Part shown: one piece after another, positions 63,321 to 64,000 of the stretch
How the letters are laid out: each line of letters begins with the position of its first letter
Numbering within the stretch: the stretch's first letter is position 1
NCBI GenBank assembly: GCA_964428495.1
Contig: CAYRXY010000002.1
Location: 19,784 to 83,783, forward strand
Direction of reading: 5' to 3'
Length of the DNA: 64,000 bases
DNA from: an uncultured archaeon
Lineage (GTDB): Archaea > Aenigmatarchaeota > Aenigmatarchaeia > GW2011-AR5 > JAHLMP01
The notes under the pieces: model-generated
What the model saw: the letters and a program-made list of their open reading frames with translations, nothing else
Told to the model about the DNA's origin: nothing
Database searches by the model: none
Program-made: the position numbers and the translations under genes

Positions 63321-63530
63321 ATGAGTTTTATGTTCGGTAATTTTATTCATAAAGCTAAAGAGTTTATTCGCCAGTGTAGAAGAGTATTGATGGTCGCAAC
63401 AAAGCCAGACTTAGAAGAATTTAAAACCTCTGTAAAAATAACTGGTCTCGGCTTTTTAGTCATAGGAATCATAGGATTTATAATATCCATGATATTTTTT
63501 ATAATTCAAAACCATATAGGTCAAGTATAA
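63321..63530 (+). CDS. secE: preprotein translocase subunit SecE (Sec61-gamma)
   Basis: EFIRQCRRVLMVATKPDLEEF then a single TM GLGFLVIGIIGFIISMIFFII. Precedes spt5, as is conserved. Confidence 0.85.
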   Translation: MSFMFGNFIHKAKEFIRQCRRVLMVATKPDLEEFKTSVKITGLGFLVIGIIGFIISMIFFIIQNHIGQV

Positions 63531-63539
63531 GGTGGGTAG

Positions 63540-64000
63540 ATGATAGTAGCAGTTAGAACTACAACAGGTCGAGAAGCAGCTGTTGTCGAATCATTAGTAA
63601 TAAGGGTAAAATCAAGATTGATGAAAGAACCTGATGCGGCTGACGAAGTTAAAATAAAGGTTGGTGCATTCAAAGGAAAAGAAGGAATTGTTAAGGAAAT
63701 AGATAGTGATACCGAAGAGCTTAAGATAGAGGTCAAGGATTCTGGTCAAATGATAACATTAGAGAAAAAGGATGTAGAGGTCGTTAAAAAGGCTAAACAA
63801 CCTATAAAGGCAATACTTCAAACAGAGGATCTCAGAGGATATATATTCATCGAGGCTGATGATGAAGATAAAATACTAGAGCTAGTTAAAGGTGCTCCAC
63901 ATATCAGGGGGCTGGTAGGTAAGGAGGTAAGTATTGATCAGCTCGAAAGATTCATAGTACCAGAAAAACAAACAATAAAGATAGAACCTGGAGATATCAT
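63540..64000 (+). CDS. spt5: transcription elongation factor Spt5 (NusG homologue), 3'-truncated by the window end, with an insertion in the NGN domain
   Basis: Not in the track (runs off the window). SD AAGGTGGG. MIVAVRTTTGREAAV..LRGYIFIEADD..VKGAPHIRGLVG NGN motifs. Open frame to 64000. Confidence 0.88.
   Translation, partial: MIVAVRTTTGREAAVVESLVIRVKSRLMKEPDAADEVKIKVGAFKGKEGIVKEIDSDTEELKIEVKDSGQMITLEKKDVEVVKKAKQPIKAILQTEDLRGYIFIEADDEDKILELVKGAPHIRGLVGKEVSIDQLERFIVPEKQTIKIEPGDI

Follow-up and report, generated by a model that had tools for sequence, protein, structure and literature searches.

A predicted KOW domain nested in the NGN domain of Spt5 in one family of Aenigmatarchaeota, most simply explained as a copy of the protein's own C-terminal KOW

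Can the domain by which Spt5 binds RNA polymerase (RNAP) harbor a second KOW within itself? The question was raised by a gene at the 3′ edge of a 64,000-nt stretch of DNA (termed here the window; G000:C2:19784-83783). Archaeal Spt5 is regarded as the minimal NGN-KOW form of Spt5/NusG, which is to our knowledge the sole transcription factor common to all cellular life, and the presence of multiple KOWs is regarded as a eukaryotic elaboration. In a first-pass annotation of the window, the NGN motifs of its Spt5 were proposed to be split by a segment with a KOW signature, located at 63618-63797 (aa 27-86). The spt5 open reading frame (63540..63998, forward strand) matched the letters quoted in that annotation and was found to be open at the window end. 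Extension into the contig, where the gene runs for another 166 nt up to G000:C2:83949, completed a protein of 208 aa with the C-terminal end ...VRLYEKKKENS (...AAIPIAVTIPMAAVRLYEKKKENS; full ORF L002:1324-1950). The source genome (649 kb in 13 contigs, 87% complete) is the small genome of a DPANN archaeon, and the named homologs of the protein are all Spt5 of 'Candidatus Aenigmatarchaeota archaeon'. The spt5 gene is single copy, with one full-length match detected per genome in the window's genome and 60 relatives; the five additional matches in this 61-genome search were split or short partial matches. The gene is located directly behind secE, an order that was kept in all insert-bearing relatives examined. 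The features of the region are as follows.

63321..63530, forward strand: secE (Sec61-gamma), 69 aa, directly 5′ of spt5 (Pfam SecE, 34.2 bits)
63531..63536, forward strand: GGTGGG, a putative Shine-Dalgarno-like element read from the sequence, right behind the secE stop codon and 4 nt before the spt5 ATG
63540..63623, forward strand: N-terminal piece of NGN, aa 1-28, with strand β1 and helix α1 (AlphaFold E2-7 and H12-27; aligns with aa 1-26 of insert-less and M. jannaschii Spt5)
63624..63800, forward strand: inserted KOW (KOWi), aa 29-87 (Pfam, AlphaFold, Foldseek, and hhalign; missing in insert-less relatives)
63642-63722, forward strand: Pfam KOW motif core of KOWi, aa 35-61
63801..63959, forward strand: C-terminal piece of NGN, aa 88-140, with β2, β3, α2, β4, and α3 (Pfam Spt5-NGN, phmmer match to 4zn1_A, and predicted secondary structure)
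63960..64000, forward strand: linker and start of the canonical C-terminal KOW, aa 141-153 (full ORF; Pfam KOW at aa 150-180)

The protein was found to have the architecture NGN(N-part) - KOWi - NGN(C-part) - linker - KOW. When the full protein was scanned with Pfam, Spt5-NGN (PF03439) was detected at aa 72-139 with 55.9 bits (cut-off 22.4) and KOW (PF00467) was detected in two stretches, aa 35-61 and aa 150-180. By phmmer, the NGN/KOW match to M. jannaschii Spt5 (4zn1_A, E 3e-30) spanned aa 24-146 of the M. jannaschii protein. Alignment with more than 40 Aenigmatarchaeota Spt5 proteins of 145-152 aa revealed a clean insertion of 59 residues, flanked by ...RVKSR(LM), where α1 ends, and by P88-IKAIL, at β2; outside this insert, the window's Spt5 aligned with the same proteins free of gaps. 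The insert was missing from compact archaeal Spt5, the nearest relatives included, as had been anticipated, and the boundaries first given for it were correct within two residues, with aa 29-87 (63624-63800) providing the best fit. The canonical C-terminal KOW likewise starts where it was expected, at IKIEPGDI on the window edge, and is complete once the contig is extended.

The fold of the insert was examined by profile and structure prediction. When excised, the insert matched Pfam KOW at 27.0 bits (E 3.6e-6), above the gathering cut-off of 22.3, which bears out the KOW signature noted at first pass. In a full-length AlphaFold2 model, made on P0002 (identical to the window's protein except for G46E), the insert had a pLDDT of 90-93, the maximum of the chain, and displayed five strands in a pattern as in the C-terminal KOW. 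In the same model, α1 of NGN was placed at H12-27, β2 started from residue 91, and the linker (aa 139-145) was of low pLDDT; the pTM of 0.54 indicates that the inter-domain geometry is not reliable, and we therefore make no claim on it. When folded alone, with the window's own insert and eight homologs as input, the insert reached a pLDDT of 90.7, with predicted strands at positions 10-13, 22-29, 34-39, 45-49, and 53-57 of the excised segment. Foldseek comparison with the PDB returned the M. jannaschii Spt5 KOW (4zn3_A) as the best match (TM 0.88, rmsd 1.5 Å, 63 columns), and the top matches were NusG/Spt5-type KOWs only. The models thus predict a complete Spt5/NusG-type KOW barrel of five strands for KOWi, able to fold independently and placed in the α1-β2 loop. 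Pfam, AlphaFold, Foldseek, and the alignment agree that a real KOW-fold domain interrupts NGN, and the segment is thereby not an unstructured loop common to the lineage.

The distribution of the insert was determined at three levels: (i) among the genomes of the GTDB family and order; (ii) in a profile search of 5.8 billion proteins; and (iii) in a HMMER scan of 1.84 billion cluster representatives. Within one GTDB family, three of six genera and five of nine genomes carried the insert, namely the window's genus, a second genus with three carrier genomes, and a third with one, while the four genomes from the three other genera of the same family were without a trace of it. The 52 genomes searched in seven further families of the order were likewise without the insert, one of these genomes giving no spt5 match. 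In the profile search, 14 clusters at 90% identity carried the insert with scores of 277-344 bits, followed by a sharp drop to insert-less proteins at no more than 238 bits, and the named members among the 14 clusters were all Aenigmatarchaeota. The HMMER scan yielded one representative with a KOW insert, P0122, among the 21 matches inspected (the long or full-span sequences of 150 matches listed, with Pfam run on 8). A word-based search with the insert alone matched only the near-identical P0002 and thus adds nothing on the range of the insert. Together, these searches suggest that the KOW insert does not extend beyond a single family of Aenigmatarchaeota.

The first-pass annotation had itself named an assembly duplication of the C-terminal KOW as an outcome that would overturn its proposal. 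That the insert is an artefact of sequencing or assembly, in which the 3′ end of the gene was chimerically duplicated, is favored only by the relatedness of the two KOWs, and it was countered by several observations. The carriers come from NCBI, JGI, ENA, and Logan assemblies of different samples and have the same secE-spt5 synteny. The two KOWs are merely about 30% identical (32% when KOWi and the C-terminal KOW of the same protein are compared), and substitutions in the insert follow a coding pattern. Since 14 distinct and divergent clusters derive from independent assemblies, an assembly artefact is excluded, and we put the chance of any such origin at practically nil.

The history of the insert within the family was examined by comparing insert sequences and by two phylogenies. 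Across the 14 clusters, the inserts share the same site and homologous sequence, such that a single gain is the economical reading. When the Spt5 tree was built without the insert columns, the family was recovered (100/99), and carriers and non-carriers were interleaved in a manner that implies at least two to three changes; the AU test admitted a topology with all carriers as one clade (p-AU 0.06). The RpoB tree (1083 columns) gave full support to the family (100/100) and to a clade that unites carriers of two genera (100/100); it left the window's genus without firm placement inside the family, and a single carrier clade had a p-AU of 0.30. The sister genera may have shed the domain cleanly or may always have been without it.

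To what is KOWi most closely related? When the insert family was aligned with the cognate C-terminal KOW family by hhalign, the two matched with a probability of 98.5% (E 2.1e-15, 57 columns). The match covered the whole domain, with I-K-I-E-x-G-D at its start and E-K-K-K at its end, and was broken only at the A-I-P-I-P loop, where three residues are deleted. An HMM built from nine inserts was then compared with (i) the ORFs of the same genome; (ii) the sequences of the PDB; and (iii) the C-terminal KOWs (KOW-C) of related archaea. In its own genome, the HMM scored highest on the C-terminal KOW of the insert-bearing protein itself (48.2 bits, HMM positions 4-60), and the runner-up was a partial match of 24 bits to an ORF that is apparently uL24. 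Among PDB sequences, the best single domain was the KOW of M. jannaschii Spt5, matched end to end at 50.5 bits; yeast SPT5 equaled this score only as the sum over several KOWs, with a best single domain of 17.4 bits, while other archaeal Spt5 KOWs scored 39-40 bits and uL24 entries 22-30 bits. Median scores for KOW-C were 45.7 bits in insert-bearers, 43.2 in insert-less members of the family, and 38.0 in other Aenigmatarchaeota. These comparisons point to the C-terminal KOW of Spt5 itself as the closest relative of KOWi, and the simplest origin would be that the KOW-coding 3′ segment of the gene was copied in frame to a place about 360 nt upstream. The score gradient in favor of the family's own KOW as the donor is modest, with the M. 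jannaschii KOW scoring equally high, and the timing of the copying can thus only be inferred. Ribosomal proteins often contain KOW domains, and the insert gave weak Pfam matches to KOW5_SPT5, DUF3912, and KIN17 SH3, as might be expected had KOWi been captured from another KOW protein (e.g., uL24, eL14, eS4, or a foreign gene) instead of from Spt5. The insert HMM scores disfavor uL24 and other KOW proteins as the source, both in the host genome (full-length match to the C-terminal KOW vs partial match to the apparent uL24) and in the PDB (39-50 bits for archaeal Spt5 KOWs vs 22-30 for uL24), and the match reaches into the C-terminal E-K-K-K tail that is specific to Spt5. We consider capture from another protein to be very improbable.

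The first-pass annotation had raised the possibility of altered contacts with the RNAP clamp, Spt4, or the ribosome, and we next asked whether a protein interrupted in this manner retains the contacts by which Spt5 works. [quoted passage not shown] The residues A4 and Y101 (clamp), E105 (Spt4), and H121 and R123 (upstream DNA) were found to be invariant or nearly so in the family alignments. Of the window's own genome and four insert-bearing relatives, all but one gave Spt4 (PF06093) above the cut-off, the exception being a relative whose genome is 63% complete. In the window's genome, Spt4 is encoded at G000:C2:139774-139938 and Rpo1N/Rpo2 at G000:C1:164100-169812. Comparison of carriers with non-carriers revealed no systematic change in Spt4. 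Based on the conservation of the NGN contact residues and the presence of an encoded Spt4, the protein very probably still performs the ordinary Spt4/5 job on the RNAP clamp. The idea that the insert replaces Spt4 was ruled out, Spt4 being present and without systematic change in the carriers.

The position of KOWi relative to these contacts may be estimated from the topology of NGN. With an RRM-like strand order of 4-1-3-2, β2 should be the NGN edge strand that pairs with Spt4, and KOWi, inserted in the connection from α1 to β2, should emerge at the Spt4-side edge of the domain. The β-sheets of Spt4 and NGN have been described to pair edge to edge, with the strand not named, and α4 of Spt4 to touch α1 and α3 of NGN (PMC2896526); the Spt4-side edge of NGN faces away from the polymerase surface (PMC3094117). 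KOWi would project from this Spt4-side, RNAP-distal edge.

Partner binding by KOW domains provided a further point of comparison. In T. kodakarensis Spt5, residues F106, V131, V132, and I134 are cited as contacted by FttA (bioRxiv 10.1101/2024.01.05.574147), and bacterial uS10 binds F141, F144, and I164 of NusG (PMC8116511). By gapless alignment, these FttA/uS10 contact positions map to F161 and A186/I187/I189 of the window's protein, i.e., to the Phe of GPFKG and the AAIPIP loop, both of which are invariant in KOW-C. This canonical NusG/Spt5 partner patch, a hydrophobic Phe/Ile surface by which the canonical KOW binds FttA and probably uS10, was not kept in KOWi: the residue at the Phe position varies among F, L, K, Q, and Y across the 14 clusters, and the AIPIP loop is shorter by three residues and not constant in sequence. 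The insert was also found to be acidic to neutral, with a net charge of -5 to 0 and a pI of 4.7-6.5. Taken together, the loss of the hydrophobic patch and the lack of basic character suggest that KOWi is probably neither a duplicate of the canonical docking site nor a clamp of the type of bacterial domain II (DII). A second canonical-type site for FttA or uS10 (the ribosome) appears unlikely from these alignments, as does a DII-like role in non-specific DNA clamping. KOWi would therefore probably be a KOW by fold and descent and not by partner specificity, although loss of the canonical patch may also be compatible with the same partners being bound in another way.

Sequence change in KOWi was compared with that of the canonical domains. 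In the four carriers for which DNA was available, pN was 0.18-0.36 in the insert, 0.10-0.16 in NGN, and 0.06-0.14 in the C-terminal KOW; pN and pS are given in place of dN/dS because synonymous sites were saturated (pS 0.65-1.0), which blocks dN/dS for most pairs. Columns of the insert alignment were on average 55% identical, as compared with 81% in the alignment of the cognate KOW-C. Residues M28, K29, D35, G42, V51, K84, and P88 were invariant or nearly so, and no frameshifted or decaying copies of the insert were found among the 14 clusters. These patterns suggest that KOWi is under purifying selection, yet changing two to three times faster than NGN and the C-terminal KOW.

What the domain does was weighed in light of these findings. 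The reading that we favor, and hold with moderate confidence as a whole, is that a copy of the protein's own KOW became nested in a single spt5, that the ordinary Spt4/5 job was kept, and that KOWi would most likely provide the elongation complex with an additional docking module particular to this lineage, in principle a parallel to the extra KOWs of eukaryotic Spt5. The faster change and the absence in sister genera, which manage without KOWi, may mean that the domain is dispensable. KOWi might accordingly be viewed as a tolerated passenger, an accidental duplication in a permissive surface loop that folds only so as to spare an essential protein and has neither partner nor role. In favor of such a view are its two- to threefold faster evolution, the lower column identity, and the lack of a conserved canonical binding patch. 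The permissiveness of the α1-β2 loop is also evident from at least six other archaeal Spt5 representatives (P0134, P0153, P0176, P0184, P0205, and P0263) in which the same place is taken by unrelated inserts (about 35-150 aa) that are not KOWs but helical or otherwise folded. No Pfam KOW was found in these other-insert representatives, and the insert of P0263, which is β-looking and in the same loop, had no Pfam KOW match and no profile similarity to KOWi. The α1-β2 loop thus appears to be a recurrent insertion site in archaeal Spt5, the particular feature here being a KOW copied from the same protein. Countering the notion of a domain without a role, carriers whose proteins are as little as about 50% identical, and whose synonymous sites are saturated, have kept KOWi in spite of strong reductive pressure on their genomes (0.5-0.8 Mb); M28, K29, D35, K84, and P88, all non-structural, are invariant or nearly so; and none of the 14 clusters has a decaying copy. 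On balance, we regard it as unlikely that the domain is carried without function, while giving this possibility real weight.

We also considered that KOWi may act within its own molecule, as a decoy of KOW-C on the NGN/Spt4 surface or on a polymerase site that tunes open and closed states, similar to the autoinhibited NGN:KOW contact of Thermotoga NusG and RfaH. Its derivation from KOW-C and its place adjoining the Spt4-binding edge would suit such a regulator, NGN:KOW autoinhibition is known in T. maritima NusG (PMC5224480, PMC7819879), and M. jannaschii Spt4:Spt5 has been crystallized as conformations A and B (entry titles of 4zn1 and 4zn3). However, the full-length model, at its pTM, offers no usable predicted contact, and KOWi has lost the very hydrophobic patch through which bacterial proteins make such contacts; we judge this intramolecular role to be improbable. 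Returning to the extra docking module, a stronger version of that reading is that KOWi is a second effector platform through which one Spt5 holds two partners at once. The C-terminal KOW would then hold the lead ribosome or FttA, and KOWi would hold a lineage-specific factor, a nucleic acid, or a host-derived component, the DPANN cells that carry KOWi being probably symbiotic. We put this version forward as a speculative and rather doubtful one.

The nested KOW was further compared with known systems. The canonical archaeal Spt5 (M. jannaschii 4ZN1/3LPE, P. furiosus 3P8B/3QQC/8P2I, and T. kodakarensis 9BCT; PF03439 and PF00467) has the same NGN and C-terminal KOW, the same clamp, Spt4, and DNA residues, a single gene copy behind secE, and a partner Spt4. 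It differs in being 147-152 aa in length with an uninterrupted NGN, whereas the protein described here is 208 aa with a 59-aa KOW nested between α1 and β2. Eukaryotic Spt5 (DSIF, KOW1-KOW5/7) also has more than one KOW per chain, the extra KOWs having diverged and made different contacts, and the insert profile also matches KOW5 of yeast and human. The eukaryotic KOWs stand in tandem, C-terminal to NGN; unlike these, the second KOW here is nested in NGN and is of independent origin within one DPANN family. The first-pass annotation had likened the insert to domain II of bacterial NusG (Thermotoga maritima 2XHC and Aquifex aeolicus 1M1G), an analogy that stands in principle, as DII is likewise a lineage-restricted folded domain nested in NGN, and is weak in detail, since the fold and charge, and probably also the loop, differ. 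The DII domains of Thermotoga and Aquifex, which are not related to each other, are described as basic, nucleic-acid-binding, and non-KOW, with binding of dsDNA and RNAP (PMC5224480), and as inserted in a 'flexible β loop' of NGN (PMC2995049). Using the conserved Pro after β2 and the GY at β3 as sequence anchors, we infer that this loop is the β2-β3 hairpin, at the opposite end of β2 from KOWi; a MAFFT alignment with E. coli NusG was subject to gap attraction. KOWi, by comparison, precedes β2, is acidic to neutral, has a KOW fold, and appears to be a copy from its own protein.

An archaeal Spt5 with an internal KOW was not described in the full-text literature searched, including a 2026 survey of elongation-factor domain architectures in 40 archaeal proteomes (PMC13289920), in agreement with the first-pass remark that none was known. 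Public records label the insert-bearing proteins plain 'Spt5', and Pfam splits their NGN match, such that the finding has an impact on annotation. The carrier clade is small and uncultivated, which limits the reach of the finding. Within that reach, the family provides a clean and datable natural case of a prokaryotic Spt5 that would have gained a second KOW by self-copy, inside the polymerase-binding domain and not at an end, and of a copied KOW that lost its canonical partner patch yet remained folded. It also represents a natural experiment in (i) the addition of interaction modules to an essential and universally conserved factor; (ii) which NGN loop tolerates insertions, the α1-β2 loop being used repeatedly in archaea; and (iii) the divergence of duplicated KOWs. 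If it is true that one Spt5 holds two partners at once, these archaea would have arrived independently at a multi-KOW logic so far deemed eukaryotic, through nesting and not through tandem addition.

Comparison of the Spt5 encoded in the window with the near-identical representative of its database cluster (P0002) revealed a single residue difference, G46E (codon 46, window 63675-63677), which falls within the G-x-F-K-G motif of the KOW domain inserted in the NGN alpha1-beta2 loop (aa 29-87). This difference looks like a strain-level polymorphism at the motif glycine. The structure model of full-length Spt5 was computed on the G46E variant. Elsewhere in the same genome, two long ORFs (C4:10079-13333 and C1:181010-183751) were found to carry runs of masked bases (N), read as X in translation.

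The usual gene array is secE-spt5-rpl11. At the window locus (63540-64000 and beyond), rpl11 was absent directly after spt5, the stop codon of which was overlapped by 6 nt by a convergent gene. This spt5/convergent CARDB-like gene arrangement was also found in relatives (L047 and L050). At L051, the gene after spt5 is rps6e, and the CARDB-like gene does not take that place. The two genes concerned are:

L002:1945-3339, minus strand, convergent gene after spt5 for a 464-aa membrane protein with faint CARDB-like matches
L051:478-1068, Spt5 with inserted KOW (P0008), called start 'MGRENAV...'

Because it was called from this start, P0008 is without strand beta1; probably either the start codon was mis-called or the L051 contig is divergent.

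Other archaeal Spt5 cluster representatives were examined among 21 of the 150 listed HMMER matches. Six of 260-315 aa (P0142, P0164, P0174, P0234, P0237, and P0259) had an N-terminal extension of ~110-180 aa, which by eye looks beta-rich, preceding a normal NGN-KOW. At least another six (P0134, P0153, P0176, P0184, P0205, and P0263) had unrelated inserts of ~35-150 aa in the alpha1-beta2 loop, at the same position as the inserted KOW; these were mostly helical, with that of P0263 (~50 aa) beta-looking, and none had a Pfam KOW match. The NGN alpha1-beta2 loop of archaeal Spt5 appears to be a hot spot at which insertions recur.
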